A DNA stretch of 64,000 nucleotides from an uncultured Duodenibacillus sp. (GTDB taxonomy: Bacteria > Pseudomonadota > Gammaproteobacteria > Burkholderiales > Burkholderiaceae_F). The stretch spans positions 343 to 64,342 of the forward strand of contig CALXQK010000012.1 in assembly GCA_944390745.1 (NCBI GenBank), in the 5' to 3' direction. Every line of letters begins with the position of its first letter. Positions within the stretch are counted from its first letter, which is position 1. This document shows, piece after piece, positions 20,493-41,580 of the stretch. The position numbers were made by a program, and so were the translations under genes. The notes beneath the pieces were generated by a model. That model made no database searches and was not told where the DNA came from. It saw nothing but the letters and a program-made list of their open reading frames with translations.

Positions 20493-23111
20493 ATGATCGA
20501 CACCCGAGTCAAGCGCTTTGTTCTGGGCTTTATCGTTCTCGTCGCCGTGCTGTGTCTGGCGGCGGTTTGCGCGCTCTTTGTCTGGGTCAATGAAAAGGCG
20601 GTGCAGCGCACGATCGAGGACTTTTCCGCGCAGGCGCTCTCGGCCGACGTGCGCTTTGAGGGGCCGGTGAAGATTCAAAGGCTCTCCACGCTCAAGATCG
20701 CGCTGCCGGCCATGACCTTCACGGACAGGGAGAGCGGCGCGCTGATCGGGCGCATCGCCTCGGCGCACGCCGACGTCTCGATCTGGTCTCTGGCGCTTGG
20801 AGCCGTGCACGTTCATTCCGCTGAAATCGACGGACTGGAGGGGACGCTGTCAGTGCCCGCCCTCTCTGGAAACGCCCTCTTTGAATCCACCTTCGGCAGC
20901 GTGCGCTTTCCCGACAGCCTTCGCGTCTCAAGCCTGAACCTCACCCGCGCCCGCTTCACGCTTGAAGTCGCCGCCCACGAAAGGGCGCAGCGGTTTCTTC
21001 TCACGGATCTGAGCCTCTCGCTCGGGCGCTTCTCGCCCGAGATGACGACGCCCTTTGAGCTCTCCACGCGCCTGGAGGCGCTCGATGAGAGCGGCCGCGT
21101 CGTGCCGATGCCCGAGCTTGAGATGCCCGCCGCTGCACCGGCCGAGCCCGCCGGCGCAGCCGACGCATCCAATGTCGGAGCGGGACCCGCTGCTCCGGCC
21201 GCTGAATCTGCACCGCAGGAGTCGACCGAAGCTTCGGAAAAGCCCTCTGCCGAGGCGCCTTTGGGGCCCTCCGCCGACACGTCGGCCGGGGCCTCTTCCG
21301 ACAATCAGTCCGAGGCTGCGCAAGGCCGGGAGTCTGCCGCAGGGGAGTCCTCCGCCGAGGCCGCCATGGACGCCGGCGCCCCGGCCGAGCCTGTCCAGGG
21401 CGAGACCGCCGGGCCTGAGTCCGCCCCCGCCGCGGAGGCGCCCGCCGATGCCGGTGCGCCTGAGGCGCACGGGGATGCGGCTTTGCCCGAATCCGCTCCC
21501 GCCCAGCCCGCCGCAGGGGACGCTGCCGCCCCTGCGATTCTCTCCTGGCTCGGTGCGGCGCACGCGCAGTCCCTGCCCGAAGGATCCGGGGAGTCTGCCG
21601 CCGGTGCAGCAGCCTCCGCCGCGACCCCGGCGCAGTCCATTTTCGAGGGATTTGATCCGAGCAGGCTTTCGGCCATGCTCTCGGCCAAGGGGACGCTCAC
21701 GATCTCCACGGCCAACCGCTACGTTCTCTTTGAAAACCTCAGCTTCTCGGGCGAAGTCTTCTACGGCGGGGAGGTCTTCACGACCGTGGCCCGCGCCGAC
21801 GTGCTGCGCTTCAAGGGTGAGGAGCTCTCGGGCATGAACGCCTCGCTGTCGCTGTCGCGCCCGCAGCAAAGCTCGGGCGACATGCAGTTTGCCGCGGCCG
21901 ACTTCCGACTGCGCCCGGGCGTGCTTGAAAGCCCCGAGATGCGCTTTGAGCACAGCCGCACCGAAGACGGCCGCACCACGAGTCTTTCGCTGGCAAGCAC
22001 CGTGACGGCCGATCTCAAGTCGGGGGCAATTGACTGCGACAGCTTCACCGCACGCGTGACGGTCACGGGCGACAAGACGCTTCCGTCCGACTTTGAAGCT
22101 TCGCTCTCGGGCTTTGTGCGTGCGCGCCTTGCGCAGCGCGAGGCGCGCGTGGGGCTCTCCGGGTCCTTTGCCGGAGCGCCGGTCTCCTACAACGGCGACA
22201 TCGTTCTCACCGACATCGCGCGGCTGCGCGGCGACCTGATGCTCGGAGATCTGGACACGGCGCGGCTGCCCGCCATTCAAAACCTCGACTGGCTGCAGCA
22301 GCTTGACTTCACCGGGACGCTTCGCATCGCCAACATCACCTCCGGACCCTTTACGGCCACGCAGCTGCACGCGCAGCTCACCGCCGGCGAAGGGCGTCTG
22401 CATCTGTCCGATCTGATCGTCAACGTCGCCGACGGGCGCGTGCTGGGCGAACTTGCCCTGGCAAGCACGGGCGACTGGGTCTTCGAGGGCCGCGTCGACG
22501 GCTCGGGACTTGACAAGCTGATGGCGGGCCTCGGAGCCTCGCCGCTCATCTCGGGCGTTGCAAGCGGCCCCCTGGTGATTTCCGGCCGCAGGCTCGATGC
22601 GGCCTCGCTTGAGGCCTCCTGCTCGCTTTCGGTTCTGCGCGGCGCCTATCACGGGCTTGACCTTGAGGCCGCGCGCCGCGTGGTGCTCAAGACCGCTCCT
22701 GAAAGCGACATCACCCGCCCGGGCGCCCGGACCGCCTTTGACGAGGCCTCGGCGCAGCTCTCGCTTAAGAACCGCACGCTCACGATCGGCTCGATCTCGG
22801 CGCGCTCGGTGTACCTCAAGAGCACCGGCAGCGTGCGCGCCGACCTTGCCGCGGGCACTGTCGAGGGCAGCATGAAGAGCACCTTTGCGCCGCTGCACGG
22901 CGAGCCGGCGATCTACCTCTCGGCCGAGCTCTCGGGCTCGGGTCTTGCGCCCGCATGGACGTTTGACTTCGCGCGCTCGGGCCAGGCACTGAGCCGCGCG
23001 CAGGGCCGCCCGCTTCTCAAGCCCGGCCGCCCCGCCCAGGAAGGCGCGCAGGACAAGCCCGCCGAGAGCCGCAGCCTCTGGCAGAGCGTGCGCGACTTCT
23101 TCAAGTTCTAG
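20493..23111 (+). CDS. AsmA-family outer-membrane biogenesis/lipid-transfer protein with a large low-complexity insert
   Basis: N-terminal anchor 'FVLGFIVLVAVLCLAAVCALFVW'. AsmA-like N- and C-terminal regions ('GEGRLHLSDLIVNVADGRVLGELAL'). The central A/E/S/P-rich stretch of about 180 aa is low-complexity. Confidence 0.7.
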   Translation: MIDTRVKRFVLGFIVLVAVLCLAAVCALFVWVNEKAVQRTIEDFSAQALSADVRFEGPVKIQRLSTLKIALPAMTFTDRESGALIGRIASAHADVSIWSLALGAVHVHSAEIDGLEGTLSVPALSGNALFESTFGSVRFPDSLRVSSLNLTRARFTLEVAAHERAQRFLLTDLSLSLGRFSPEMTTPFELSTRLEALDESGRVVPMPELEMPAAAPAEPAGAADASNVGAGPAAPAAESAPQESTEASEKPSAEAPLGPSADTSAGASSDNQSEAAQGRESAAGESSAEAAMDAGAPAEPVQGETAGPESAPAAEAPADAGAPEAHGDAALPESAPAQPAAGDAAAPAILSWLGAAHAQSLPEGSGESAAGAAASAATPAQSIFEGFDPSRLSAMLSAKGTLTISTANRYVLFENLSFSGEVFYGGEVFTTVARADVLRFKGEELSGMNASLSLSRPQQSSGDMQFAAADFRLRPGVLESPEMRFEHSRTEDGRTTSLSLASTVTADLKSGAIDCDSFTARVTVTGDKTLPSDFEASLSGFVRARLAQREARVGLSGSFAGAPVSYNGDIVLTDIARLRGDLMLGDLDTARLPAIQNLDWLQQLDFTGTLRIANITSGPFTATQLHAQLTAGEGRLHLSDLIVNVADGRVLGELALASTGDWVFEGRVDGSGLDKLMAGLGASPLISGVASGPLVISGRRLDAASLEASCSLSVLRGAYHGLDLEAARRVVLKTAPESDITRPGARTAFDEASAQLSLKNRTLTIGSISARSVYLKSTGSVRADLAAGTVEGSMKSTFAPLHGEPAIYLSAELSGSGLAPAWTFDFARSGQALSRAQGRPLLKPGRPAQEGAQDKPAESRSLWQSVRDFFKF

Positions 23112-24082
23112 CCCGCCCGGTCAAAGGCGCGCTCAACCGTGTGCCGCGCCGCGGCGCTGCGCTCAAGAAAGTCCCTCGCCGCGGCCTGCGCCAGCCACTG
23201 CGCAAAGCAGCGCACATCCACGTCCTTGATGTCGCGGTCGGTGCGCGTGATGATGCACATGGTCCAGGCCTGCCGCTCCCAGCCGCGCAGGATCGGCACG
23301 ATCATCCCCGAGCTGATCTCCTCGATGACGTGTCCGCAGTAGAGGTCCGTCGTGATGCCGAGCCCCCCGAGCAGAAGCTCCTTGAGCGTGAACTGGTCGT
23401 GCGTCGAGAAGGTCTTTCTCCACTTCAAGAGCGCGCTCGGCACGCCGTCGCGAAAGAGAAACTGCGAGGGCTTTCGATTGATGGTCTGAAAGAGCAGCCC
23501 GGTGTGCTCGACGAGATCGGCTGGCGTCCTCGGGCAGCCGTTCTTGGCAAGATAGTCCGGTGCGGCGAGCACCGGCGTGGTCGACGTGTTGTAGGCGCGC
23601 ACGAAGATGTCCGCACCGGCGCCCGAAGTCTGCGGACGGTGGTTCATCACCGCGACGTCCACGTCGCCCGAGAGCACCGCGTCGACGCGCACCTCCGGAA
23701 AGACCTGAAACTCAATGCCTGGATGCGCGACGGAGTAGTCGTACAAAAGACGCGAGAAGTACTCCTGCTCAAGCTCAATGGGGGCGGCAAAGCGCAGCAC
23801 CCGGCGCCTTGCCGGCGCCTGCGAGCGCTCCTCGATCATCTGCCGAAAGCCCCGCACGAGGGGCTCGGCCTGCCGCACGAGCTCGCTGCAGCGCTGCGTC
23901 GGGGCAAAGGGGCGCCGGGACCGGTCAAAGAGCCTCGCGCCGAGCTCCTCCTCAAGGCCTGATATCCAGCGCGAGACCCGCGGCAGGTCCGTCTGCATGA
24001 GCTCGGCCGTGCGCGAGATGTTTCCGGTCCGGGCCGTGATCACCACGGCCTCCCAGGCAAGCAAGTTGTTCCTGCAGTTCAT
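23108..24082 (-). CDS. LysR-family transcriptional regulator
   Basis: N-terminal HTH 'ISRTAELMQTDLPRVSRWISGLEEELGARLFDRSRRPFAPT' plus a LysR substrate-binding-type C-terminus. It is divergent from the molybdoenzyme operon. Confidence 0.85.
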   Translation of the reverse strand: MNCRNNLLAWEAVVITARTGNISRTAELMQTDLPRVSRWISGLEEELGARLFDRSRRPFAPTQRCSELVRQAEPLVRGFRQMIEERSQAPARRRVLRFAAPIELEQEYFSRLLYDYSVAHPGIEFQVFPEVRVDAVLSGDVDVAVMNHRPQTSGAGADIFVRAYNTSTTPVLAAPDYLAKNGCPRTPADLVEHTGLLFQTINRKPSQFLFRDGVPSALLKWRKTFSTHDQFTLKELLLGGLGITTDLYCGHVIEEISSGMIVPILRGWERQAWTMCIITRTDRDIKDVDVRCFAQWLAQAAARDFLERSAAARHTVERAFDRAG

Positions 24083-24247: not shown

Positions 24248-24622
24248 CTACCCTGTTCAAAACAACTAGTCAAACCGACGGATGCAGAACACAATCAAAT
24301 CCGAGCGGCTCGTGCATTCCGACAAGCCGCCTGCAGCAGAAGGCTTTGAGGGAGCGGCTTTCCCGAAAAAAACAAGTGCTCGGCCAAGCGAGCGCCCTCC
24401 TTCGAAAGTCTCCGGCTGACAAACCGCAACCCCTGAAATTGGTTTTCCGTCCGCACAAAAACCCCCTTGTGCGGACGCCTGCCCATCCGGATGCCGGGGC
24501 AGCGCGCACCCCCGGGCGGACCGGCGCTCCAGCCGCCGCCCCCGGTCGCCGCCGTCCCCCAGCGGCCCCGCCGCCCGGGCGAGCGGGCCTGAACCATTTT
24601 CGTCCAACCAGGAGATTGAAAA

Positions 24623-27304
24623 ATGGAAATGTCCGCGATCAATCGCCGCAGCTTTCTGAAGGCGACGGCCGTGACCGGCGTCGCGGCGGCTCTGAGCGAG
24701 TCGCTGCCGGGCGGCCTCGTTGAGGATGCCCGCGCCGCTGCGGAAAAGCCTGCGGCCAAGGACGAGACCAAGATCGTCAAGACCTGCTGCCGCGCCTGCA
24801 TTCACAACTGCGGCGTGCTCGCGCACGTCAGAAACGGCCGCGTCGTCAAGCTCGAGGGCGACCCCGACTACCCGATGAGCAAGGGCGCCATGTGCGCCAA
24901 GGGCCTGGCCGGCATCTCGGCACTCTATCACCCCAACCGCAACAAGTACCCGCTCATCCGCGCCGGAAAGCGCGGCGAGAACAAGTGGAAGCGCATCACT
25001 TGGAAGGAAGCCATCGACATCATCGCCAAGAAGCTCATGGACACCCGCGCCAAGTACGGCGCCGAGGCCGTCATGGTGTCGACGGGCGGCGGCGGCAACC
25101 CGGCCTTCCGCGGCGTCTCGCGCTTCTGCAACGCCTTCGGCACGCCGAACTTCTACGAACCGGGCTGCGCGCAGTGCTGGCTGCCCCGCACGCTCACGTA
25201 CGACCTGATGTACGGCGGCCCGGGCCCGAGCATCGCCGACGAGCAGTGCCGCGAGATCTACAACCCCGACACCAAGATCAAGACCATCGTGCTCTGGGGC
25301 ACGGACGCAAGCTACAGCAACCCCGCCGGCGGCGGACGCGCGCTCGTTGAGCTGCGCGCCAAGGGCGTCAAGACCGTCTCGATCGACCCGCGCTTTGTGC
25401 CCGACGCCGCGCGCGCCGACGTGTGGCTGCCGATCCGCCCGGGCACCGACGTGGCGCTGATGCTCACCTGGATTCGCTACATCATCGACCGCAAGATCTA
25501 CGACCGCGACTTTGTGCTGCGCTGGACGAACCTGCCCTTCCTCGTCAACACCAAGACGAAGATGATCTACATGGCCAGCGAGGTCGATCCCAAGGCCGAT
25601 CCCAAGACCCCGATGGTCTGGGACGCCAAGACGAAGTCGGCCAAGCCCCTGCCCTATCCCTGGGACGACAATCTCGATCCGGCTCTCGAGGGCGCCTTCA
25701 CGATCAACGGCGTCGAGTACAAGACGGGCTTTACGCTTCTGAAGGAGCGCGCCGAGCCCTGGACGCTTGAAAAGGGCGCCGAGGTCTGCTGGCTTGACGC
25801 CAAGAAAATTGAGGAGGCCATCAAGCTCTACGCCGACGGTCCCTCGGGCATCTCCCTGGGCGTCGCCACCGACCAGAGCCCCAACTCCGTGCAGGCCGCC
25901 ATGGGCGTGTGCCTCATCGAGTCGCTGATGGGCAATGTCGAGAAGCCCGGCAACTTCATGCAGCGCAACCCGACGAGCAACGTCGTGCCCTCGGGCAGTC
26001 TTGCCACCCGCTGCTCCTACCTGCTGCCCAAGGGCCAGCTCAAGAAGCGCATCGGCTCCAACGAGCACAAGGGCCTCATGCAGTGGGACGCCGCGCAGCC
26101 CTCGGCGCTTCTCAACGCCATCCTCACCGGCAAGCCCTACCCGATCAAGGTCTGGCTGGAGCGCTCGGGCAACAAGTTCGTCGTCAACGCCAACGCCGGC
26201 TCCTGGGTGGCGGCCTTCGACAAGCTCGACTTCGTGATGCACATGTACATGTACCCGACCTCGTTCTCGGCCTACGCGGACATGCTGCTGCCCGCCACCG
26301 AGTGGCTTGAGACGAACATGCTCGTCGAGTGCATGAACACCGTCTTCGCCCGCCAGGCGGTCACCCACCTGTGGGAGACCGAGGACGAGACGCTCATGTG
26401 GTCGAAGGTGATCAAGAAGTGCGCCGAGCTCGGCAACGAGAACTGCAAGCGCGCCTGCGATCCGAAGTTCATGAAGGACGACCTCGCCTACTGGGATTCG
26501 ATGGAGGAGCTGCTCGACCAGCGTCTGGCCCGCATCGGCCTCACCTGGAAGGAGCTGCTTGCCAAGAACGGCCCCGTGGAGTACATGCCCTACGAGAAGT
26601 GGAACCAGTACTACGTCTACAAGAAGGTCGATCCGAAGACGGGGCTGCCTCAGGGCTTCCGCACGCCCTCAAGAAAGCTCGAGCTCTACGGCGAGCGCTT
26701 CATCAAGCTCGGCCGCACGGGCGAGCCCTATGCGCTCGACGAGGTTCCGCCCGTTGAGAAGGACTACGATCCGCTGCCCTACTACCTCGAGCCCAGCGAG
26801 AGTCCCAACGATCCGAAGGTCGCCGGAGAATATCCGCTCACCATGACCAACGGTCGTCTGCCCATTTACCACCACGGCACGCTGCGCAACGTTCCGTACC
26901 TGCGCGAGATCATGCCCACGGCCGAAATCTGGATCAACCCCGAAACGGCCGCCAAGAACGGCATCGCCCAGAACGACTGGGTCTGGGTTGAGTCTCCGCG
27001 CGGCAAGATCCGCGCACGCGCGCGCCTTACCGAGAGCATGAACCCGCGCGTGGTCTACATGGAGCGCTTCTGGAACCCCGAGACGCTCAACACGAAGACC
27101 CACGGCTGGCAGGAGGAGAACGTCAACGTTCTCTCCAAGAACACGCCGCCCTTCAACGACGTTGTGGGCACCTACACGCTGCGCGGCTACCAGGTGAAGA
27201 TCTACAAGGCCGACGGCGCCCCCGAGGGCGTCTGGACCAAGCCCGAGGATTTCAAGCCGTGGATGCCTCAGCCCTCGGATCCGACCAAGAATGTGGAGTT
27301 CTAA
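24623..27304 (+). CDS. Periplasmic molybdopterin (bis-MGD, DMSO-reductase superfamily) oxidoreductase, catalytic subunit; substrate unknown
   Basis: Tat signal 'MEMSAINRRSFLKATAVTGVAAA'. N-terminal FS0 motif C-X2-C-X3-C-X27-C ('CCRACIHNCG...GAMCAKG'). 893 aa. SD AGGAGA lies 8 nt upstream of the ATG. Confidence 0.85.
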   Translation: MEMSAINRRSFLKATAVTGVAAALSESLPGGLVEDARAAAEKPAAKDETKIVKTCCRACIHNCGVLAHVRNGRVVKLEGDPDYPMSKGAMCAKGLAGISALYHPNRNKYPLIRAGKRGENKWKRITWKEAIDIIAKKLMDTRAKYGAEAVMVSTGGGGNPAFRGVSRFCNAFGTPNFYEPGCAQCWLPRTLTYDLMYGGPGPSIADEQCREIYNPDTKIKTIVLWGTDASYSNPAGGGRALVELRAKGVKTVSIDPRFVPDAARADVWLPIRPGTDVALMLTWIRYIIDRKIYDRDFVLRWTNLPFLVNTKTKMIYMASEVDPKADPKTPMVWDAKTKSAKPLPYPWDDNLDPALEGAFTINGVEYKTGFTLLKERAEPWTLEKGAEVCWLDAKKIEEAIKLYADGPSGISLGVATDQSPNSVQAAMGVCLIESLMGNVEKPGNFMQRNPTSNVVPSGSLATRCSYLLPKGQLKKRIGSNEHKGLMQWDAAQPSALLNAILTGKPYPIKVWLERSGNKFVVNANAGSWVAAFDKLDFVMHMYMYPTSFSAYADMLLPATEWLETNMLVECMNTVFARQAVTHLWETEDETLMWSKVIKKCAELGNENCKRACDPKFMKDDLAYWDSMEELLDQRLARIGLTWKELLAKNGPVEYMPYEKWNQYYVYKKVDPKTGLPQGFRTPSRKLELYGERFIKLGRTGEPYALDEVPPVEKDYDPLPYYLEPSESPNDPKVAGEYPLTMTNGRLPIYHHGTLRNVPYLREIMPTAEIWINPETAAKNGIAQNDWVWVESPRGKIRARARLTESMNPRVVYMERFWNPETLNTKTHGWQEENVNVLSKNTPPFNDVVGTYTLRGYQVKIYKADGAPEGVWTKPEDFKPWMPQPSDPTKNVEF

Positions 27305-27307
27305 AAA

Positions 27308-27901
27308 ATGGCACAGAAAACTCTCGTCATCGACCTCGACCGCTGCATCGGCTGCCACGCCTGCGAGGTCGCCTGCAAGCAGGAAAACAACGTGCCGCTC
27401 GGCGTGTACTACAACAAGGTGCTCTCGATCGGCCCGCTCGGCAAATTCCCCGACATCAAGCAGTACTTTCTGCCCTCGGTCTGCCAGGTCTGCAAGGATG
27501 CTCCCTGTCTGAAGGTCTGCCCGACGGGCGCGACCTACAAGACTGAGGACGGCCAGATTCTGGTGAACAAGGAAAAGTGCATCGGCTGCAAGATGTGCAT
27601 GGCCGCGTGCCCCTACGGCGCCCGCTCCTACAACCCGGAGGAGAACGTGGTCGAGAAGTGCACGCTGTGCCATCACCTGCAGGAGGTCGGCGACCTTCCG
27701 GCCTGCGTGAAGGCCTGCTGCGCCAAGGCCCGCTTCTTCGGCGACATCGACGATCCTGAAAGCGACGTCTCCAAGGCCGTCAAGGCCGCCGGTCCGGAAA
27801 ACGTGCACAGCATGCCCGACTCGGGCAATCATCCGACCGTGCGCTACATTCTTCACAAGAAGAATGCTCCGTGGCAGGCCAATCCTCCGAAGATGCTCTA
27901 A
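27308..27901 (+). CDS. Four-cluster 4Fe-4S electron-transfer subunit (DmsB/PsrB type)
   Basis: 'CIGCHACEVACK', 'CQVCKDAPCLKVCPTGA', 'CIGCKMCMAACPYGA', 'CTLCHH...PACVKACCAKA'. It starts 4 nt after the catalytic subunit stop. Confidence 0.85.
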   Translation: MAQKTLVIDLDRCIGCHACEVACKQENNVPLGVYYNKVLSIGPLGKFPDIKQYFLPSVCQVCKDAPCLKVCPTGATYKTEDGQILVNKEKCIGCKMCMAACPYGARSYNPEENVVEKCTLCHHLQEVGDLPACVKACCAKARFFGDIDDPESDVSKAVKAAGPENVHSMPDSGNHPTVRYILHKKNAPWQANPPKML

Positions 27902-27919
27902 CCGTCGGGAGAGCTCGAG

Positions 27920-28741
27920 ATGGGCGAAGGATCGATCACTCTGACGCTGTTCAACGTACTGCTCACCTGCTCGGCGGGCCTCATGGCCGCCGCAGCCCTC
28001 GCCGAGCGCGCCAACCTTCCGGTGCGCGTGCTCGCGGCAGCGGCCGCGGCCGCCCTCGTCTGCCTTGCGGCGGGCGGTGCGGCGGCCCTGGCCAACCTCG
28101 GCCGGCCGGCCCTGATCTTCGGCGTGCTCTCCAACCCGGGGACGCCGATCTTCGAGCAGTTCGTCGCGCTGATGGCGTTTGCAGCGGCCATCCTCGTCTA
28201 TCTCGTGCTGCTTTACCGCGGCGCCGAGAACGCCGTCACCTTCCGGACGGCCTGCGTCGCCTCGCTGCTCGGGCTGGTGCTCGTGGTGATTCTCGGCAAA
28301 AGCCTCGTCATGCCCTGGCGCGCCGCCTGGAACACCTACACGATCATCCTCGGCCCCGCGGCCTGGATGGCGCTCATGGCAGCCTCGTGCTACGCCCTCA
28401 TGGCCTGGCGCTCTGAGGACGATCCGCACCCCGTGCGCATTGCCGTGTGCGCCGTCGCGGCGCTTGCCGCCGCGGCGGTCTACCTCGCCGCCCTGGCTGT
28501 GTCGGGCAGCCCCGAGGCGCTCGGCGCGGTCAACCGCGCGCTGAGCGGCGACGCGGCCGGGCTTCTGTGGCTGGGCATCGTCGTCTGCGGAGCGCTCGTT
28601 CCCCTGGCGGCGGCATTTTTTGCGCACCGCGCTCCGGCCGCCGGCGGGATCATCGCCCTGGCGGGCGCGCTCGTCGGCTGCGGGGCGGGCCACCTTCTGG
28701 TGACGGCCCTGGGCTCGCGCACCTGGGAGTTCTTCGGCTAG
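27920..28741 (+). CDS. DmsC-type membrane anchor subunit
   Basis: 273-aa ORF with about 8 hydrophobic helices and no cofactor motifs. It is in third position of an A-B-C arrangement. Confidence 0.7.
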   Translation: MGEGSITLTLFNVLLTCSAGLMAAAALAERANLPVRVLAAAAAAALVCLAAGGAAALANLGRPALIFGVLSNPGTPIFEQFVALMAFAAAILVYLVLLYRGAENAVTFRTACVASLLGLVLVVILGKSLVMPWRAAWNTYTIILGPAAWMALMAASCYALMAWRSEDDPHPVRIAVCAVAALAAAAVYLAALAVSGSPEALGAVNRALSGDAAGLLWLGIVVCGALVPLAAAFFAHRAPAAGGIIALAGALVGCGAGHLLVTALGSRTWEFFG

Positions 28742-28863
28742 AAAAGCCCTCCCCGGCCTGCGGCCCCGCTCTTTTTTGCTCTTTTTTGAAGTTTTGTGCG
28801 GCGCCGCCTCGGCAGGCGCCGCCCCCGGCAATCGGTTCAAGCAACAAGAAGGAATCAATTCCC

Positions 28864-29601
28864 ATGAATCAGCAGGACGCTCTCGCACTGCAGCAGCGCG
28901 GCGAAATGTACCGGCTCCTGAGCCGGTTCTTTCGCACGGAAATCACCGCGCAATGCCTCGACGGCCTCAAGCAGATGCAGTTTCCCGGCGGAAGCGCCGA
29001 TGAAAACCCTCTGGCCGAGGGCTTTGCGCGCATCCGCGCCTATCTCGATGCGCCGCACGAGGATGCGCTCACGGAGCTCGCCGTCGACTACGCCTCGGCC
29101 TTTCTGGGCGCGGGAAAAATGCGCGCCGCCTATCCCTATGAGTCGGTCTATACGAGCCCCGAGCGGCTCGTGATGCAAAACGCCTGGGAGGAGGTGTGCG
29201 CGATCTACCGCACCCATGGCCTGGCCTGCAGCGATCACCGCGACGTCCTTGAAGACCACCTCGCGCTTGAGCTTGAATTCATGGCGCGGCTCACCGACAA
29301 CGCGCTTGCCGCGCTCAAGGCCGGCGACCGCCAGGCGCTCGCGGCGGCCCTCGAGGAGCAGCAGTCGTTTCTGAAGGCGCACCTGCTCAACTGGATCAGC
29401 TCCTTTGCCCACGAGGCGCGCGAATACATCGAGACCGACTTCTACCGCGGCGCGGTGGACGTGACTGAAAAATTCCTCTCGATGGACGCGGCAATCTTGG
29501 ACGACCTTCTTGCGGAGGTCCGCGCCGAGCCGGCCGCCGGCGGCGCGGCGCAGGACAAGTCCTCGCCCGCGGTCCCGGAGACCGCGCAGCAGAAGGCCTG
29601 A
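28864..29601 (+). CDS. TorD/DmsD-family redox enzyme maturation chaperone
   Basis: I prefer the ATG at 28864 ('MNQQDALALQQRGEMYRLLSRFF'). Family motif 'LEDHLALELEFMARL'. The track ORF start at 28447 overlaps dmsC and is rejected. Confidence 0.7.
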   Translation: MNQQDALALQQRGEMYRLLSRFFRTEITAQCLDGLKQMQFPGGSADENPLAEGFARIRAYLDAPHEDALTELAVDYASAFLGAGKMRAAYPYESVYTSPERLVMQNAWEEVCAIYRTHGLACSDHRDVLEDHLALELEFMARLTDNALAALKAGDRQALAAALEEQQSFLKAHLLNWISSFAHEAREYIETDFYRGAVDVTEKFLSMDAAILDDLLAEVRAEPAAGGAAQDKSSPAVPETAQQKA

Positions 29602-29649
29602 GGACGGCCGGAGAAGTCCCCCGGCCGGTTTTCCACAACACACGACAAG

Positions 29650-30423
29650 GTGCATGGGATGCGTGAAGACAGCAGACGCACGGACGCAAAGAACCCGGAC
29701 GAGGCCCGAGACCGCCTCCCGGGGGCGTCGACAGCGAATCGCCGCGCACCCCTGGGCATGCAGCGCCGCGACCTGTGCGCGGCCGCCGCGGGCACGGCTG
29801 CGCTTTTTCTTCTCGGCGCCGCAGGGCGCGCCTCGTCTGCGCAGCGTCCCGTGCGGCCTCCGGGAGGACAGAATGAGGCCGAGTTTCTGGCGCGCTGCAT
29901 TCGCTGCGACCGGTGCCGGAGCATCTGCCCCACCTCGGCCATCGGCGTGGGCACGATCGCTGGCGGCCTTGTGCAGATGCGCACCCCGGTGATGGTCTTT
30001 CTTTCGGGCGACTGCGACTTCTGCCGCAAGTGCGTCGAGGTCTGTCCCACCGGGGCGCTGCAGGACTTTGATCCCGACACGGCCAAGATCGGCACGGCCG
30101 AACTGACCGACAGCTGCATTGCGCTGCGCACCGGGGGCTGCACGAAGTGCTACGAGATGTGCCCCTACGACGCCATCTCCCTTAGCGACACCATGGCGCC
30201 CGTCATCGACGCCGGGCGCTGCAACGGCTGCGGCACGTGCGTGAAGGTTTGCCCGGCCAACGTCTTTCAGGCCTTCAGGGGAGAGGCGGTGCGCGGCGTT
30301 CGCATCGCCGCCTCCGAAAAGACCCTGCGCACGGACGCCACGGCGCGCGACGAGACGCCCAACGCGCTTCCCGGCCGCTCCCCGGCGCAGCCCCCAGAGT
30401 CCGGCGGGAGGGCGAATTCATGA
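29650..30423 (+). CDS. NapG/MauM-like periplasmic four-cluster ferredoxin (Tat-exported)
   Basis: Twin-arginine region 'MQRRDLCAAAAGTAALFLLGAAG'. Clusters 'CIRCDRCRSICP', 'CDFCRKCVEVCP', 'CTKCYEMCP', 'CNGCGTCVKVCP'. The true start may be 29659 or 29758. Confidence 0.7.
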   Translation: MHGMREDSRRTDAKNPDEARDRLPGASTANRRAPLGMQRRDLCAAAAGTAALFLLGAAGRASSAQRPVRPPGGQNEAEFLARCIRCDRCRSICPTSAIGVGTIAGGLVQMRTPVMVFLSGDCDFCRKCVEVCPTGALQDFDPDTAKIGTAELTDSCIALRTGGCTKCYEMCPYDAISLSDTMAPVIDAGRCNGCGTCVKVCPANVFQAFRGEAVRGVRIAASEKTLRTDATARDETPNALPGRSPAQPPESGGRANS

Positions 30424-32780
30424 AGCTCAAGCCATCCGCGCTGCGCACCGCCACGGCGCTTTTCTTCATTCTGGCGGTCATCGTCGGGCTTATTTTCCAC
30501 ACGGGCTGGGGGACGCTCTCCTCGTTCGGCATCGGCGCCATCGCCGCCATCTGCCCACTGGGCGCGCTGGAGATGAGTCTTGCCGACGGCGCGCTGCTGC
30601 CGCGCGTTCTCATCGGCTTTGTCGTCTTTCTGGCCGTAACGGCCCTTTTCGGGCGCATCTTCTGCGGCTGGGCCTGCCCGGTGCCGCTCATTGAGCGCGC
30701 CGCAGGCAAGAAACGCACGATCGCCATCCATGCGCAGTCCTGCACCCGCAACAAGGAGCAGAGCCCGGGCGACTGCACGCACAACTGCAGCGCCTGCAGC
30801 GCGTCCGCGGGCGACTCCGGCGCGGCCGGCAAAAAGCCCGCCCGCGCCCCGTACTTCATTCTGGGCGGCGCGCTTGTCTCAAGCGCCGTCTTCGGCTTTC
30901 CGGTCTTTTGCCTCATCTGCCCGGTGGGCCTGACGTTTGCGCTCATCATCGGCCTGTGGCAGCTCTTTGCCTTCAACGCCGGCTCCTGGTCGCTTGCCTT
31001 CTTCGCGGGCTTTCTCGTGCTCGAGATCTTCGTGTTGCGGCGCTGGTGCGGCAGCTTCTGCCCGCTCGGGGCGCTCATTTCCATCATGGCGCGCTTGAAC
31101 CGCTTCTGGCGTCCGAAGATTCATCCGCAGGCCTGCCTTGCGTCCTCGCGCGGACTCGACTGCCGCGTCTGCCGCTCGGTCTGCCCGGAGGGGATTGATC
31201 TCACGGCGCCCTGCGTTTCAGACGAGCTGATGGCGCGCTGCACGAAGTGCCGCGCCTGCGCCGAGGCCTGCCCGGCGGGCGCCATTTCCTTCCCCTTCCA
31301 GAAAATCACCCGGCCCAGGACGGCTCCGGCCATGGCCGCGCGCCGCGATCCTGCAGAGCTGCCCGTTGAGGTGCGCCGCAGCACCTTTGCCGAGGTCTGC
31401 GGCGGGCTGACCGCAGCCGAGGCGCAGGAGCAAAGCGCCCGCTGCATCGGATGCGGGGCGTGCGAAAAGGCCTGCCCGCAAGGCAATCCGATTGTCTCGG
31501 TGCTCTCGCTCGTGTCGCAGGCGCGCACGCGCGAGGCCGCCGCCGCGCTGCTTGTTCCCGGCGCCATGCCCGAAATCTGCGGCCGCGTCTGCCCCCAGGA
31601 GCGGCTCTGCGAGAGCGCCTGCCCCCTCGGGCAGGATCCGGCGCTCGGCGGCCCGCTTCCGATCGGCGCCCTGACGCGGTTTGCCGCCGACACGGTGCTT
31701 GCGCGCGGATGGCGCCCCGCAAGGGCCCGCCGCAAGTCCGGCCGCAGGGCGGCCGTGATCGGCTCGGGTCCCGCGGGCCTCGCGGCGGCCGACGTGCTCG
31801 CGCAGGCCGGGCATGAGGTCACGATCCTTGAGGCGCTGCCGCACGCCGGGGGCCTTCTTTCCTGGGGCATTCCGGCCTTCAAGCTCGACCCCCTCGTCGT
31901 TGAGCGGCGCATCGGCTTTCTGAAGCATCTCGGCGTGACGCTGCGCACCGGCGTCAGCGCGGGCGCTGCCGAGGGCGCGGATCCTGAGACAATCCTCAGG
32001 GACTTTGATGCGGTTTTTGTCGCCTGCGGCGCGCAGTCGCCCTCCGGACTCTTTCTCGAGCCCGGAAAAGATGCCGTCAACGGCACGGACGTCGTGCAGG
32101 CGCTTGACTACCTGCGCGAGGCCGCGCAGCTCGTTCGCGACGCCCGCAGCCGCACCGCGCCCGGCCGACGGCGCCGGCGCGCCGCAGCAGCCTCGCCCGA
32201 ACCCGAGGTCATTGACACGCGCCTGAACGTGCGCGGCCGCCGCGTGGCGGTGCTCGGAGGCGGCGATACGGCGATGGACTGCCTGCGCACCGCCATCCGC
32301 GAGGGCGCCCGCAGCGCCGCGTGCATCTATCACCATGACCGCGCGGCCATGCACGCCGCCGGCGCCGAGGTGCGCCGAGCCCGCGAGGAGGGCGCCGAGT
32401 TTTTCTTCAACGCCGAGGTTGCCGGGCTTGCCCGCGCAGCCGACGGCATGCTCACGGGCGTCATCGTCCGGCAGGGCGGGGCCGCCCCCCGGACGATTGA
32501 GGCCGACCTGGTGATCGTCGCCTACGGCTTTCACTGCGCTGCGGCGCCGTGGCTTGAAAAGGCGGGCGTTGCCCTCGATGCGCAGGGCCGCATCATCACC
32601 GGCGACGGGGGCGTCGACGGGCGCACCACGAACCCGAGGATCTTTGCCGCGGGCGACGCGGTGCACGGCGCCGATCTCGTCGTCACCGCGCTTGCAGACG
32701 CCCGCAGGGCCGCGAAGTCCATGTGCGCCCTGCTCGACGAAGACCGTCCGGGGAAAGCCGCACCGCACGCCCGAGCCTGA
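30420..32780 (+). CDS. Fusion protein: NapH-like membrane Fe-S protein (N-terminal) + GltD/SudA-like NAD(P)H-dependent FAD/Fe-S oxidoreductase (C-terminal)
   Basis: The ATG at 30420 overlaps the napG-like stop (ATGA). Four TM segments with the NapH-type 'CGWACP' and 'CGSFCP', then 'CRVCRSVCP' and 'CTKCRACAEACP'. GltD-type 'RCIGCGACEKACP ... CGRVCPQERLCESACPLG', 'AVIGSGPAGLAAA' and 'VAVLGGGDTAMDC' follow. Confidence 0.75.
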   Translation: MKLKPSALRTATALFFILAVIVGLIFHTGWGTLSSFGIGAIAAICPLGALEMSLADGALLPRVLIGFVVFLAVTALFGRIFCGWACPVPLIERAAGKKRTIAIHAQSCTRNKEQSPGDCTHNCSACSASAGDSGAAGKKPARAPYFILGGALVSSAVFGFPVFCLICPVGLTFALIIGLWQLFAFNAGSWSLAFFAGFLVLEIFVLRRWCGSFCPLGALISIMARLNRFWRPKIHPQACLASSRGLDCRVCRSVCPEGIDLTAPCVSDELMARCTKCRACAEACPAGAISFPFQKITRPRTAPAMAARRDPAELPVEVRRSTFAEVCGGLTAAEAQEQSARCIGCGACEKACPQGNPIVSVLSLVSQARTREAAAALLVPGAMPEICGRVCPQERLCESACPLGQDPALGGPLPIGALTRFAADTVLARGWRPARARRKSGRRAAVIGSGPAGLAAADVLAQAGHEVTILEALPHAGGLLSWGIPAFKLDPLVVERRIGFLKHLGVTLRTGVSAGAAEGADPETILRDFDAVFVACGAQSPSGLFLEPGKDAVNGTDVVQALDYLREAAQLVRDARSRTAPGRRRRRAAAASPEPEVIDTRLNVRGRRVAVLGGGDTAMDCLRTAIREGARSAACIYHHDRAAMHAAGAEVRRAREEGAEFFFNAEVAGLARAADGMLTGVIVRQGGAAPRTIEADLVIVAYGFHCAAAPWLEKAGVALDAQGRIITGDGGVDGRTTNPRIFAAGDAVHGADLVVTALADARRAAKSMCALLDEDRPGKAAPHARA

Positions 32781-32825
32781 CAGTTTTGCGCATCCGCCGA
32801 ATCCTTTTTCCAACGTTTTCGCACC

Positions 32826-33962
32826 ATGCCTGCAACCCGGTCCGGGGGCGCCGCCCAGGGCGCCCCCAAAATCGCTCCCACCGTTCCCATCATCGTGCGC
32901 AAGCGCTGCCTGCATGCGCGCCATGTCGCCTCGCGCTGCACGCGCTGCATTGACGTGTGCGGCGCCGGCGCCCTGCGTCTTGTCGAGCAGCAGCTCATCA
33001 CCGACTCGCGCCGTTGCTCGTCGTGCGGCGCCTGCGTTGCGGCCTGCCCGACCGAGGCGCTTTACGCGGTCGTGCCCGAGACGCATGCCCTCGCGCAGGA
33101 GATTGCCGCACAGGCCCGCAACGGCGCCGTGCGCATCAGCTGCACGATGGCGCAGCTGCCGCCCTCCGAGGCGGGCACCCGGGTGCCGTGTCTGGCACGT
33201 CTGTCGCCCGGCATGCTGATCGATGCCGTGGAGTCCGGCGCGGATTGTCTGCAGCTCACGTGCGGCGTCTGCTCGACCTGCTCCCGGCGCCCGAAGACCG
33301 ATGTTGTTGAGGAGGCGCTGCAGCGCGTGCGCGCCTGGCTTGCCGCCCGCGGCCGCAGGGTCCTCGACGCGCCGCCCCATCCAGGCGGCGGCGATGAGGC
33401 GGCCGGCGCCGTTGTCCTGCACCTCACAAGGCACGCGCACGGCATGAACTCGGCGCGCCGCGCCGCCCTCGGGCGGCTTCTCGGCATCGGCGCCAGCGCC
33501 CTTGACCGCGAGCCCTTCAGGCTGCCGGCTGACTTCAGGGACAAGCTCGAGGCCATTCGCGCCGAACCCCTCGTGCGCATTCCCGAGCCGCAGAAGGCGC
33601 GCCTGCGGCGCTTTCAGAAGGGCACGCCTGAAACGCGCGAGGCCTTTGCGCTTGACGCTCCCGTCATCGACGCCGAGGCCTGCGCCTGCTGCGGGCTGTG
33701 CGCCGACATGTGCCCCTCGGGGGCCCTGAAGATGCTCTCGCAAAATCCCTGCCGCATCATTGCCAGTCCCCTGCTGTGCTGCGGCTGTCGGCTGTGCGCG
33801 GACCTTTGCTTCAAGGACGCGGTCACCCTTGAAAGGGCCTCCACGCCCGAGGAGGCCGCCGCACGCGTCGTGCTCGAGAAGTCCGTCGGGGACGATCCGA
33901 TGGCCGTCTGGGAGGACAAGCTCGGGCGGCTTCTCGGCGACGTGCCGATCTACCGCAGCTAG
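32826..33962 (+). CDS. Cytoplasmic multi-cluster 4Fe-4S (polyferredoxin-like) protein
   Basis: 'RCTRCIDVCGAGAL', 'CSSCGACVAACPTEAL', 'CACCGLCADMCPSGAL', 'CCGCRLCADLCFKDA'. The N- and C-terminal ferredoxin modules are separated by about 200 aa of unrecognised sequence. No signal peptide. Confidence 0.6.
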   Translation: MPATRSGGAAQGAPKIAPTVPIIVRKRCLHARHVASRCTRCIDVCGAGALRLVEQQLITDSRRCSSCGACVAACPTEALYAVVPETHALAQEIAAQARNGAVRISCTMAQLPPSEAGTRVPCLARLSPGMLIDAVESGADCLQLTCGVCSTCSRRPKTDVVEEALQRVRAWLAARGRRVLDAPPHPGGGDEAAGAVVLHLTRHAHGMNSARRAALGRLLGIGASALDREPFRLPADFRDKLEAIRAEPLVRIPEPQKARLRRFQKGTPETREAFALDAPVIDAEACACCGLCADMCPSGALKMLSQNPCRIIASPLLCCGCRLCADLCFKDAVTLERASTPEEAAARVVLEKSVGDDPMAVWEDKLGRLLGDVPIYRS

Positions 33963-34063
33963 CTGGCTGCGCCGCACGCTCGCTCTTCGGTTTTCCAATG
34001 CAAGGACGGCCGGACGCCCGCCACAGGGGTGTCCGGCCGTCTTGTCAAGAGCGCAGCGGCTCG

Positions 34064-34987: not shown

Positions 34988-35210
34988 GGCAGAAGAAACG
35001 ATTCCGACAAATGACGGATTCAATCTTAGGACGAAAAATCCCCGCACGCAAGCCCCGTCAGGGGACCGACGCAGGAAAATCCTCTCAAGACCGGCCGCAG
35101 AAGCTCGCCCGGGGCCTCACGCGCGCATCACGCGGGCGCGCGGCGACTGTTGCGCCGCCGCGGCAAAAGGAGTCCTCAGCCCGCAGGGGCCGGGAATGCG
35201 CAGGATGCGC

Positions 35211-39796: not shown

Positions 39797-39823
39797 GATT
39801 CAAGCTTCCTATCTTTCGCCTTC

Positions 39824-40627: not shown

Positions 40628-40628
40628 G

Positions 40629-41564: not shown

Positions 41565-41580
41565 GACGGATTCCTTCTTC

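Follow-up and report, generated by a model that had tools for sequence, protein, structure and literature searches.

What does an operon that already appears to encode a complete quinol-linked molybdoenzyme do with a second set of electron-transfer genes? This question was raised by a locus in DNA from an uncultured Duodenibacillus sp. (assembly GCA_944390745.1, contig CALXQK010000012.1), of which a stretch of 64,000 nucleotides, here called the window, was analysed. ORF and domain analyses placed seven genes, designated A to G, on the forward strand within positions 24623-33962, each at the coordinates given in the initial annotation (Table 1). That annotation had counted an eight-gene operon, but its own text lists seven genes, and an eighth is reached only if the divergent LysR-type regulator gene is included.

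Table 1. Features of the locus, with positions in the window
Feature	Position	Strand	Basis
LysR-type regulator, divergent	23108..24082	-	HTH_1 and LysR_substrate domains
A, bis-MGD catalytic subunit, Tat-exported, 893 aa	24623..27304	+	Pfam and NCBIfam matches
B, four-cluster [4Fe-4S] electron-transfer subunit, 197 aa	27308..27901	+	Fer4_11 domain
C, haem-free DmsC/NrfD-like membrane anchor, 273 aa	27920..28741	+	8 hydrophobic segments
C-D spacer, 122 nt, two T6 runs	28742..28863	+	Sequence reading
D, TorD/DmsD-family maturation chaperone	28864..29601	+	PF02613, E 2.6e-30; ATG start
E, NapG/MauM-like ferredoxin, Tat-exported, four Cys-cluster motifs	29650..30423	+	NapF, NapG and MauM/NapG models
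F, NapH-GltD fusion, 786 aa	30420..32780	+	Fer4_5, Fer4_20 and Pyr_redox_2 domains
G, cytoplasmic polyferredoxin, 378 aa	32826..33962	+	Fer4 matches at both ends only
Strong GC hairpin between convergent genes	34005..34045		Fold

A LysR gene also lies beside the operon in C. ljungdahlii, in Desulfitobacterium and in many loci of Sutterella; here its product is likely a substrate-responsive regulator and probably controls A-G. At the other end, the fold of 33955-34070 had an energy of -65.9 kcal/mol (z = -5.35; 0 of 200 shuffles were equally stable), and the GC hairpin likely marks the 3′ boundary of the operon. Between these ends, T-runs were found 3′ of C, and a weak hairpin followed by UUUU was found 3′ of D. 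The C-D spacer, whose RNA fold was not significant in the folding test, gives a weak hint of an attenuation point. The locus was also contained in chicken-gut RNA libraries. One RNA contig (24426-30439), apart from the LysR contig, spans A to E and bridges the D-E junction, although contigs of this kind are no proof of a single transcript and the libraries may include DNA. A second contig from the same library extends from 30640 to 34751. Contigs from three RNA runs end at 28678-28777, and coverage 3′ of C was patchy.

The catalytic subunit A contains the Pfam domains TAT_signal, Molybdop_Fe4S4, Molybdopterin and Molydop_binding, a twin-arginine motif (RRSF, residues 8-11) and an FS0 cluster (Cys56/59/63/91). 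Cys185, which aligned with the Cys that ligates the metal in acetylene hydratase and in PsrA, is the predicted Mo/W ligand; all of these motif residues were invariant in 22 relatives. The initial annotation had judged that A could not be assigned to a substrate class by eye, and A reached no curated family cut-off among the NCBIfam models. As a DmsA, it scored 238 bits versus a cut-off of 778 for the DmsA/YnfE model, it has Cys at the ligand position where DmsA has Ser, and a separate true DmsA is present in the genome, as are BisC/TorA-type enzymes. As a PhsA, it scored 290 bits versus 694, and as a NapA, 139 bits versus 904. The description of the locus as DmsABC-type thus holds for the architecture but not for the identity of A. 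The nearest solved relatives of A are acetylene hydratase, the closest of all, and polysulfide reductase; unlike in the former, the position of the catalytic Asp (Asp13) is occupied by Ile (Ile60) in A.

Relatives of A were encoded on 371 stretches in a collection that holds one genome per species, and its clade shows 60-76% identity across Pseudomonadota, Bacillota, Campylobacterota, Deferribacterota and Acidobacteriota. In the tree, the A family is sister to a clade with Gordonibacter, Paraeggerthella and Raoultibacter enzymes. On sequence grounds, A is placed in a highly conserved, uncharacterised, Cys-ligated clade beside the acetylene-hydratase/catechol-dehydroxylase-like branch. The phylogeny suggested by the initial annotation returned a clade that nearly always has such a gene set but that is without known specificity.

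B matched DmsB/ArrB/NrfC-like models, and its 16 Cys, invariant in 14 relatives, suffice for four [4Fe-4S] clusters. C had no Pfam match of its own; it is 29% identical (BLASTP, E 2e-25) to a syntenic Shewanella protein that matches Pfam DmsC and NrfD. D scored 99.9 bits against the TorD model, under the 132-bit cut-off, and is retained in nearly all relatives, cytoplasmic ones included. As had been proposed, A-D correspond in composition to a full alpha-beta-gamma molybdoenzyme linked to quinol, chaperone included.

The accessory module begins with E, whose start may be GTG 29650, ATG 29659 or ATG 29758; with the GTG start, the D-E gap is 48 nt, as annotated. Its matches to the NapF, NapG and MauM/NapG models were all under cut-off, with NapF scoring slightly above NapG, and RR, RPPG and 16 Cys were invariant in 14 orthologues. 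The ATG of F overlaps the stop codon of E (ATGA), in agreement with the translational coupling claimed for the pair. The NapH-like N-terminal part of F (approximately residues 1-330, 4-5 helices) has CX3CP motifs at 82 and 210 plus two FeS motifs. Its GltD/AegA-like C-terminal part comprises Fer4_20 together with motifs for FAD (GSGPAG at 448) and for NAD(P)H (GGGDTA at 613), and more than 120 full-length fused homologues of F were found. G has no signal peptide and carries four ferredoxin-type Cys motifs in two di-cluster domains around an unassigned middle part of about 190 aa. The Atlas clusters closest to it are of generic 4Fe-4S proteins; it is located 3′ of NapH in the loci of Shewanella, Sporomusa and Sulfurospirillum and is a possible NapF analogue.

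In an architecture census of 68 related loci, each with at least 5 kb downstream, an accessory redox module was present in 59. NapG and NapH were found in 26 loci, spread over at least five phyla, AsrA-like and AsrB-like genes in 33, and A-B-D only in 9. An anchor of at least five helices accompanied 25 of the 26 NapGH loci, and GltD was fused in 18 of them. The twin-arginine motif of A was present in 21/21 relatives of the NapGH type versus 0/30 of the AsrAB type, the latter being cytoplasmic Clostridia forms in which the Tat motif and the anchor have been lost. The Tat motif thus tracks module type: exported enzymes rely on the membrane-spanning module, cytoplasmic enzymes on a soluble flavoprotein module. 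AsrAB is the NADH-dependent electron-input module of anaerobic sulfite reductase, and genes of these cytoplasmic relatives passed both equivalog cut-offs (in C. ljungdahlii, AsrA 428 versus 323 bits and AsrB 358 versus 289 bits). Unlike in that reductase, the pair stands beside a molybdoenzyme and without the AsrC siroheme subunit: no conserved AsrC-like gene was found 3′ of the pair.

In the tree, NapGH-type loci are basal, the AsrAB type forms a derived clade and the GltD fusion marks a single proteobacterial clade, a pattern indicating that NAD(P)H flavoproteins were recruited twice, independently. Basal relatives have NapGH without a flavoprotein, and the original role of NapGH in the A family was independent of NAD(P)H. 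The gene order is shared with Sutterella, Parasutterella, Shewanella, Sporomusa, Desulfitobacterium, Sulfurospirillum and others; such conservation across phyla shows that the arrangement is not due to chance, and, with the anchor in nearly every NapGH locus, upholds the reading of E-F-G as a NapG/NapH-GltD/polyferredoxin module of the same system. Two membrane modules for one catalytic subunit had been called unusual, but E. coli Nap, in which NapC and NapGH both serve one catalytic subunit, provides a precedent, and the anchor together with NapGH is the ancestral, regular state of the A family. Because the two co-occur and do not substitute for each other, they may cooperate instead of offering alternative inputs. 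Of the earlier suggestion that the reductase is fed either from the quinone pool or from cytoplasmic NAD(P)H/ferredoxin, the NAD(P)H link gains indirect support from the AsrAB-type relatives; the co-occurrence of anchor and NapGH fits cooperation no less well than alternative inputs.

Among known systems, NapFDAGHBC of E. coli and Wolinella succinogenes resembles the locus in having a bis-MGD enzyme that is Cys-ligated, exported by Tat and provided with a dedicated chaperone (as A), the Tat-exported ferredoxin NapG (as E), a four-helix NapH that carries two CX3CP motifs and, on its cytoplasmic side, two FeS motifs (as F) and the cytoplasmic polyferredoxin NapF docking on NapH (as G). Unlike Nap, the A-G locus has DmsB/DmsC-like subunits instead of the cytochromes NapB/NapC, and a TorD-type chaperone instead of NapD; moreover, its NapH continues as a fusion into a GltD-type NAD(P)H flavoprotein, NapF is half as large as G, and E and F fall under the NapG/NapH model cut-offs. 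DmsABC and PsrABC share an alpha subunit with Tat signal, FS0 and bis-MGD, a beta subunit with 4x[4Fe-4S], a gamma subunit that is a haem-free DmsC/NrfD anchor of 8 helices, and a TorD/DmsD-family chaperone, whereas the three-gene electron-transfer module is added only in the A-G locus, and the Mo ligand is Cys rather than the Ser of Dms. The GltD part of F scored best against the gltD_gamma_fam and AegA models, which recalls the ferredoxin-GltD fusions AegA/YgfT of E. coli; unlike these soluble proteins, F is predicted to be membrane-embedded via NapH. The NapGH-like pair of Sulfurospirillum multivorans has no fused flavoprotein, no co-encoded DmsC-type anchor and a different terminal enzyme. 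Like NosGH and MauMN, it represents a NapG/NapH pair recruited to a periplasmic enzyme other than nitrate reductase, being described as a NapGH-like quinol dehydrogenase of the organohalide-respiration region (PMC4585668). Finally, the gut catechol dehydroxylase class comprises Dadh, Hcdh and Cldh, and C. ljungdahlii and Desulfitobacterium were named among putative dehydroxylase encoders (Maini Rekdal et al. 2020, PMC7028382). The Eggerthella enzymes are, like A-C, alpha-beta-gamma and Tat-exported, but A is only about 26-37% identical to the Eggerthellaceae proteins, and NapGH, GltD and AsrAB modules are unmentioned in the publications consulted on the described dehydroxylases.

We propose, with about even confidence, that the periplasmic reductase A-D is joined to a Nap-style set, E-G, for NAD(P)H-linked electron supply. 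A and B would be assembled in the cytoplasm with chaperone D, exported by Tat and placed on the haem-free anchor C at the periplasmic face, as in DmsABC or PsrABC, where A would reduce a small-molecule electron acceptor. E would serve as a NapG-like periplasmic ferredoxin, F as a NapH-like membrane FeS protein and G as a NapF-like cytoplasmic polyferredoxin; in the proteobacterial lineage, a GltD-type NAD(P)H:FAD oxidoreductase is fused at the cytoplasmic end of NapH. Menaquinol electrons would reach A via C and/or the NapH membrane domain, while NAD(P)H would be linked by the GltD domain to the FeS clusters on the cytoplasmic side of NapH, its reducing power then passing to E and on to B and A. 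We infer the direction of electron flow, the passage of NAD(P)H electrons through NapH to the periplasm, the contact of E with A/B, and an acceptor as the substrate class of A. Against this proposal, the membrane part of NapH is, to our knowledge, free of haem and other known cofactors, we know of no published electron route from its cytoplasmic clusters to the periplasm, and NapGH of basal relatives stands without any flavoprotein. The membrane part of NapH has been proposed to oxidise quinol, electrons then passing to NapG, and cytoplasmic NapF is bound by NapH (PMC5928378).

It seems unlikely that the cytoplasmic parts, G and the GltD domain, which would dock on NapH in the manner of NapF, instead provide low-potential electrons for activation or maturation, either by loading FeS clusters or Moco into pre-A before export or by holding Mo/W reduced, with catalytic electrons coming from quinol via C. 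Acetylene hydratase is active only with a strong reductant and with Mo/W reduced, which would suit such a role for a near relative; its catalytic Asp, however, is missing from A. The presence of G 3′ of NapH in relatives without GltD, the slightly better score of E on the NapF model, and NapF itself, a cytoplasmic polyferredoxin attached to NapH and acting in NapA maturation (PMC5928378), are likewise consistent with activation. Yet E is Tat-exported in all orthologues, so that the module acts partly beyond the cytoplasm, and cytoplasmic relatives keep a complete AsrAB-type input whose gene coupling looks stoichiometric and resembles catalytic supply.

A function of F as an NAD(P)H:menaquinone oxidoreductase, reducing quinone at the NapH domain while C re-oxidises quinol for A/B, is rather improbable, as it leaves no role for the exported E, which is invariant and translationally coupled to F, and is impossible for relatives with NapGH but without the flavoprotein. 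The modules in series would then link NAD(P)H privately to the acceptor and so balance redox, a balancing role that Brondijk et al. reportedly proposed for E. coli NapGH in 2004. The near-constant anchor in NapGH loci would fit such a chain. So would the genome (99.8% complete), in which no NuoH and no RnfD/NqrB homologue was found; there is thus no complex I, Rnf or Nqr as general NADH entry to the chain. This absence equally favours the NAD(P)H-linked supply proposed above for A-G.

Several bis-MGD enzymes are dehydrogenases, GltD/NfnB-type flavoproteins are reversible and can bifurcate, and in principle AsrAB-type and GltD-type modules can run either way. A might therefore oxidise or hydroxylate a periplasmic substrate, with electrons passing via C to quinone and via E-F to NAD(P)+, the path possibly being split or joined at the GltD flavin. 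We consider this improbable: a very low-potential substrate would be required for NAD(P)+ reduction, related loci have only regulators, Moco genes and porins nearby, which fit a terminal reductase, and no downstream catabolic genes, and the respiration of Sutterella couples formate or H2, as donors, to many acceptors (10.1101/2022.12.26.521950). That A-D form an ordinary reductase beside an unrelated unit E-G serving something else is highly improbable and largely refuted by synteny. The 48-nt D-E gap, the weak hairpin and UUUU after D, and the patchy coverage 3′ of C in three RNA runs would fit it, but the same neighbourhood recurs in 26 loci of at least five phyla, the presence of the Tat motif in A is perfectly correlated with the type of module, a single RNA contig bridges D-E, and the true NapA of this genome has its own adjacent NapH-like gene.

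Taken together, these data support the view that genes A-G form one functional respiratory-type enzyme system supplied with electrons from pyridine nucleotides, in which the accessory electron-transfer module is a regular part of the A enzyme family.

Seven co-directional genes, designated A through G, were found between 24623 and 33962 (see the table), where the initial annotation had counted eight while naming seven in its own text; the sole candidate for an eighth gene is the divergent LysR gene. Genes A to D have the make-up of an alpha-beta-gamma iron-sulfur molybdoenzyme: the alpha subunit carries FS0 and a Tat signal, the beta subunit has four clusters, and a membrane anchor and a chaperone of the TorD/DmsD type complete the set. 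The anchor C is 29% identical (E 2e-25) to a syntenic Shewanella protein that matches both Pfam DmsC and NrfD. Further downstream, the start ATG of F overlaps the stop codon of E. A very stable hairpin (z = -5.35) closes the operon against a convergent downstream gene, which encodes a FeMo-cofactor-binding domain and is the immediate neighbor of the molybdoenzyme operon. The spacer between C and D (122 nt) contains two T-runs, and a weak hairpin followed by UUUU lies 3' of D; attenuation within the operon is thus possible. A promoter scan did not find a sigma-70-like site, and terminator-like matches were no commoner than in shuffled sequences.

Genes and features of the molybdoenzyme operon and its borders (window positions)
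Feature	Position	Strand	Description
LysR gene	23108-24082	-	divergent regulator gene
A	24623-27304	+	catalytic subunit, 893 aa; twin-arginine signal RRSF, FS0 Cys motif, both molybdopterin domains
B	27308-27901	+	iron-sulfur subunit; 16 invariant Cys, capacity for four [4Fe-4S] clusters
C	27920-28741	+	anchor; eight hydrophobic helices, no Pfam match of its own
D	28864-29601	+	TorD/DmsD-family chaperone
E	29650-30423 (start uncertain)	+	NapG/MauM-like ferredoxin
F	30420-32780	+	NapH-like part joined to GltD/AegA-like part
G	32826-33962	+	polyferredoxin without signal; middle part without assigned domain
Hairpin	34005-34045		
Convergent gene	34064-35047	-	DUF134 fused to NifX/NifB-type FeMo-cofactor-binding domain; His/Cys/Gly-rich tail

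The locus was present in four chicken-gut metatranscriptome runs (X1-X4) from one study. In the best run, one RNA contig began 5' of A and reached the E/F junction (24426-30439), apart from the contig of the LysR gene, and a second covered 30640-34751. These contigs fit co-transcription of A-E, and probably of F-G too; contigs prove no single transcript, and DNA carry-over is possible. Read depth in X2-X4 was seemingly higher over B-C and lower past 28.7 kb, but because contigs cannot rank genes, these differences were not used to argue for separate regulation.

In model searches, A fell below every curated family cut-off. It scored 237.9 bits against the DmsA/YnfE model TIGR02166 (cut-off, 777.7 bits), for which a separate gene of the same genome scored 1066.5 bits. 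Assignments to PhsA/PsrA (NF012032, 290.4 bits against a 694-bit cut-off, although a Cys ligand is present) and to NapA (139 against 904 bits) were rejected as well. The best solved relatives were acetylene hydratase (192 bits) and the Thermus polysulfide reductase PsrA (184 bits). Alignment with both of these answered the earlier call for the metal ligand: Cys185 (motif EPGCAQC) falls on their metal-ligand Cys, is invariant in 22 relatives of A, and is the predicted Mo ligand, in place of the serine expected of a DmsA-like enzyme. Given the Cys ligand and the score below the DmsA/YnfE cut-off, the earlier label "DmsABC-type" holds for the subunit architecture only. Acetylene hydratase is a cytoplasmic monomer with its catalytic Asp right after the second FS0 Cys. 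This identity was also rejected for A, which has Ile60 at that position, a Tat signal, and partner subunits; Ile60 is nearly invariant across the family.

Relatives of A are encoded by 371 stretches in a collection that represents each species by a single genome. Carriers include many gut Sutterellaceae, Lachnospiraceae, and Oscillospiraceae, together with acetogens, Desulfitobacterium, and Sulfurospirillum, and the loci closest to that of the window all belong to gut Sutterella (best, 92% identity). Identity was 60-76% between members from Sutterella, Shewanella, Brenneria, Sporomusa, Desulfitobacterium, and Clostridium, a range that also spans those from Lachnospiraceae, Sulfurospirillum, Deferribacteraceae, and Acidobacteriota. 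The family formed a fully supported clade in a FastTree phylogeny, and its sister group (support 92) consisted of enzymes from Gordonibacter, Paraeggerthella, and Raoultibacter plus one each from Syntrophomonas and Bathyarchaeia; A was placed relative to characterized enzymes by HMM and PDB scores and by unlabelled Eggerthellaceae homologues, possibly Cldh or Dadh. Acetylene hydratase was reported to be the closest relative of the catechol dehydroxylases, a class that removes an aromatic hydroxyl group reductively, and the organisms listed as encoding "putative dehydroxylases" include C. ljungdahlii and Desulfitobacterium (Maini Rekdal et al., PMC7028382). The A clade may correspond to these putative dehydroxylases of C. 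ljungdahlii and Desulfitobacterium.

To compare the surroundings of A, 86 related loci were annotated by tblastn and hydropathy, and counts were restricted to the 68 in which the sequence continues for at least 5 kb past A. The neighborhood, for which a check had been requested earlier, was conserved: an accessory module was found in 59/68 loci, either a NapG-like plus NapH-like pair (26 loci) or, in loci without an anchor, A-B-D followed by AsrA-like and AsrB-like genes (33 loci); the other nine contained A-B-D only. Among the 26 NapGH loci, 25 had an anchor of at least five helices between A and NapG, GltD was fused to NapH in 18, and G was detectable in at least 12. In anaerobic sulfite reductase, AsrAB is known as the pair through which electrons enter from NADH. 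Both C. ljungdahlii proteins passed the curated equivalog cut-offs (AsrA-like, 428 against 323; AsrB-like, 358 against 289), and no conserved AsrC-like gene was found after the pair. Module and export signal matched exactly, with a twin-arginine pair in 21/21 NapGH-type A proteins and in 0/30 of the AsrAB type, which retain a degenerate signal remnant (e.g., N-K-K-D-F-L) plus a TorD-like chaperone. On the tree, the NapGH type was basal (soil Bacillota, Sulfurospirillum, Deferribacteraceae), the GltD fusion was confined to one proteobacterial clade (Shewanella, Sutterellaceae), and the AsrAB type formed a derived clade beside Sporomusa and Desulfitobacterium. These separate positions indicate that an NAD(P)H flavoprotein was recruited twice, fused to NapH for an enzyme outside the cytoplasm and as a soluble pair for an enzyme moved inside.

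Several loci departed from these arrangements. In Shewanella yunxiaonensis (L030, 13238-14454), an IS-type transposase gene (rve domain) lies between anchor and chaperone of an otherwise identical A-G operon. In Brenneria corticis (L103), a G-like polyferredoxin comes immediately after A-B-D, and NapG and NapH are absent. Parasutterella muris (L056/L058) has two family copies, of which one includes the complete NapGH-GltD set and the other is limited to A-B-C-D. Some contigs binned to Bacteroidota or Oscillospiraceae (L065, L073, Hallella faecis; L101, Bacteroides sp. CAG:927; L067, L070, Oscillospiraceae MAG) carry operons whose place on the tree is among those of Sutterellaceae or Clostridia, pointing to mis-binning or recent transfer. 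Sutterella wadsworthensis DSM 14016 (L043), by contrast, has an orthologous operon that includes the fused gene.

The accessory proteins were related to known families by motifs, with scores below the curated cut-offs. E has the motif set of NapG/MauM, including a twin-arginine signal and four Cys-cluster motifs, with the RR pair, an RPPG motif, and 16 Cys invariant in 14 orthologues, but scored 72.5 against 269 (NF007012) and 65.2 against 178.85 (TIGR00397). The NapH-like part of F has a Fer4_5 domain, four to five hydrophobic segments, and the motifs of NapH/MauN, including the CX3CP motifs CGWACP (residue 82) and CGSFCP (residue 210) and FeS motifs at residues 248-256 and 274-285; its scores were 72.2 against 234 (NF007013) and 63.1 against 213 (TIGR02163). 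The remainder has the GltD/NfnB domains Fer4_20 (PF14691) and PF07992, an FAD motif (GSGPAG, 448), and an NAD(P)H motif (GGGDTA, 613), and scored 379.8 against the TIGR01318 cut-off of 482.95. More than 120 full-length homologues share this NapH-GltD fusion. A cytoplasmic loop of F (residues ~105-145; 30730-30860) contains a Cys-rich C-x12-C-x3-C-x2-C stretch and then a linker rich in Ser, Ala, and Gly. This loop varies between strains: in that of RNA run X1, 21 nt are deleted in frame at 30797 and substitutions are clustered in the same region. A Protein Atlas search with G returned generic 4Fe-4S clusters only, and G was rejected as an AsrA homologue since BLASTP with a Clostridium AsrA-like protein aligned only ferredoxin motifs. 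Like NapF, a small polyferredoxin of the cytoplasm that attaches to NapH and has four Cys-cluster motifs, G is cytoplasmic, has four motifs, and lies 3' of NapH, but it is 378 aa long and scored only 26.7 bits against the NapF model. Complex prediction for B with mature E gave scores of 0.36, 0.00, and 0.00, which is evidence neither way.

The host genome (2.22 Mb, 99.8% complete) encodes one A-family copy and five other molybdoenzymes: a true DmsA/YnfE-type enzyme, a BisC/TorA-type S/N-oxide reductase, NapA with its own NapH-like neighbor, formate dehydrogenase-N, and an additional PhsA-like enzyme not assigned further. That second NapH-like gene adjoins the true NapA on contig C19 of this genome (G000, 38522-42915), which also carries, no more than ~25 kb away, the genes for the DmsA-type enzyme and formate dehydrogenase-N; the partner of F is a different molybdoenzyme. 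No match to NuoH (PF00146) or RnfD/NqrB (PF03116) was found in the genome, and complex I, Rnf, and Nqr are thus apparently absent from this Sutterella.

Substrate clues were sought in the surroundings of A and in the literature. The flanks of related loci contained recurrent genes for LysR, GntR/FCD, and ROK regulators, sigma-54 activators, MoeA/MobA, porins, and MFS transporters, but neighbor analysis revealed no catabolic enzymes or substrate hints in them. An MccA sulfite-reductase cluster beside the operon was rejected as a clue because the adjacency is not kept in other Sutterella loci. In Desulfitobacterium (L031, 15745-17404), genes for a corrinoid-binding protein and a URO-D/MtaA-like methyltransferase directly follow the operon, an arrangement seen in four loci only. 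Such a pair is typical of aryl-O-demethylases, which yield catechols. A literature search found no paper on the NapH-GltD fusion, the substrate of the A clade, or AsrAB beside a molybdoenzyme; a 2026 study of Salmonella "Xsr" (PMC13524816) deals with true DmsA paralogues and is not relevant to A.

Two membrane modules for one catalytic subunit had been regarded as unusual. In E. coli, two membrane modules likewise serve the single reductase of the Nap system, and the second module is a trait of the A family. A corresponds to NapA and D, by role, to NapD; E corresponds to NapG, the N-terminal part of F to NapH, and G possibly to NapF, with B and C in the places of NapB and NapC. The system thus joins a complex iron-sulfur molybdoenzyme to accessory proteins of the Nap type. 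In the part of PMC5928378 that cites Kern and Simon, the membrane part of NapH is thought to oxidize quinol and pass electrons to NapG, NapG attachment requires the CX3CP motifs, and cytoplasmic NapF is bound by NapH. Overall, the earlier observation is sound and its interpretation largely right, with four corrections, which concern the number of genes, the "DmsABC-type" label, the view of two membrane modules as unusual, and their treatment as alternatives.

With roughly even confidence, we favor the reading that A is a terminal reductase for a periplasmic acceptor, supplied with menaquinol electrons via C and/or NapH and with NAD(P)H electrons via GltD. Through the GltD domain, NAD(P)H would be linked to the NapH clusters on the cytoplasmic side, and its electrons could pass to E and from there to B and A. 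The best argument comes from comparison, in that the cytoplasmic enzyme acquired an AsrAB-type module, a kind known to use NADH; the apparent lack of complex I, Rnf, and Nqr as another NADH route adds to it. The putative NAD(P)H link of the system is conserved. This reading has weak points: we know of no cofactor that carries electrons through NapH, and basal relatives carry NapGH without a flavoprotein. Moreover, the two modules had been proposed as alternative inputs, but the co-occurrence of anchor and NapGH (25/26) fits cooperation equally well.

Another explanation, which we consider unlikely, gives the cytoplasmic parts a NapF-like role in activation or maturation. It is less probable still that F is a private NAD(P)H:menaquinone reductase working in series with C, and we would give even less credence to a dehydrogenase running in the reverse direction. 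That A-D and E-G are merely adjacent is highly improbable, being largely excluded by synteny.

Beyond the favored supply of A by both menaquinol and NAD(P)H, a bolder proposal, which we regard as doubtful, is that NapH acts as a transmembrane conduit through which the GltD/NfnB flavoprotein lets NAD(P)H drive the periplasmic molybdoenzyme. Of each electron pair, the flavin might send one electron to menaquinone, at the membrane domain of NapH, and the other along an FeS path of low potential through G and E. The periplasm would then receive electrons of stronger reducing power than those of quinol, which could serve a demanding reaction such as the dehydroxylation of an aromatic compound or the reduction of a low-potential sulfur compound. 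If true, this would provide a role for the cytoplasmic clusters of NapH, NosR, and related proteins, which have long lacked an explanation.

The A clade is strongly conserved and widespread in gut taxa, and thus represents an abundant gut redox activity still to be assigned. It should be possible to purify the soluble form of Clostridium, as in the genetically tractable C. ljungdahlii and C. autoethanogenum, and to assay it with NAD(P)H, and a substrate found for it would very likely hold for the membrane-bound Sutterella form too. Taken together, the NapH-GltD fusion and its replacement by AsrAB in cytoplasmic forms suggest that the cytoplasmic FeS clusters of NapH-type proteins exchange electrons with the pyridine-nucleotide pool, which offers a clue to a long-standing question regarding NapH, NosR, and RdhC.
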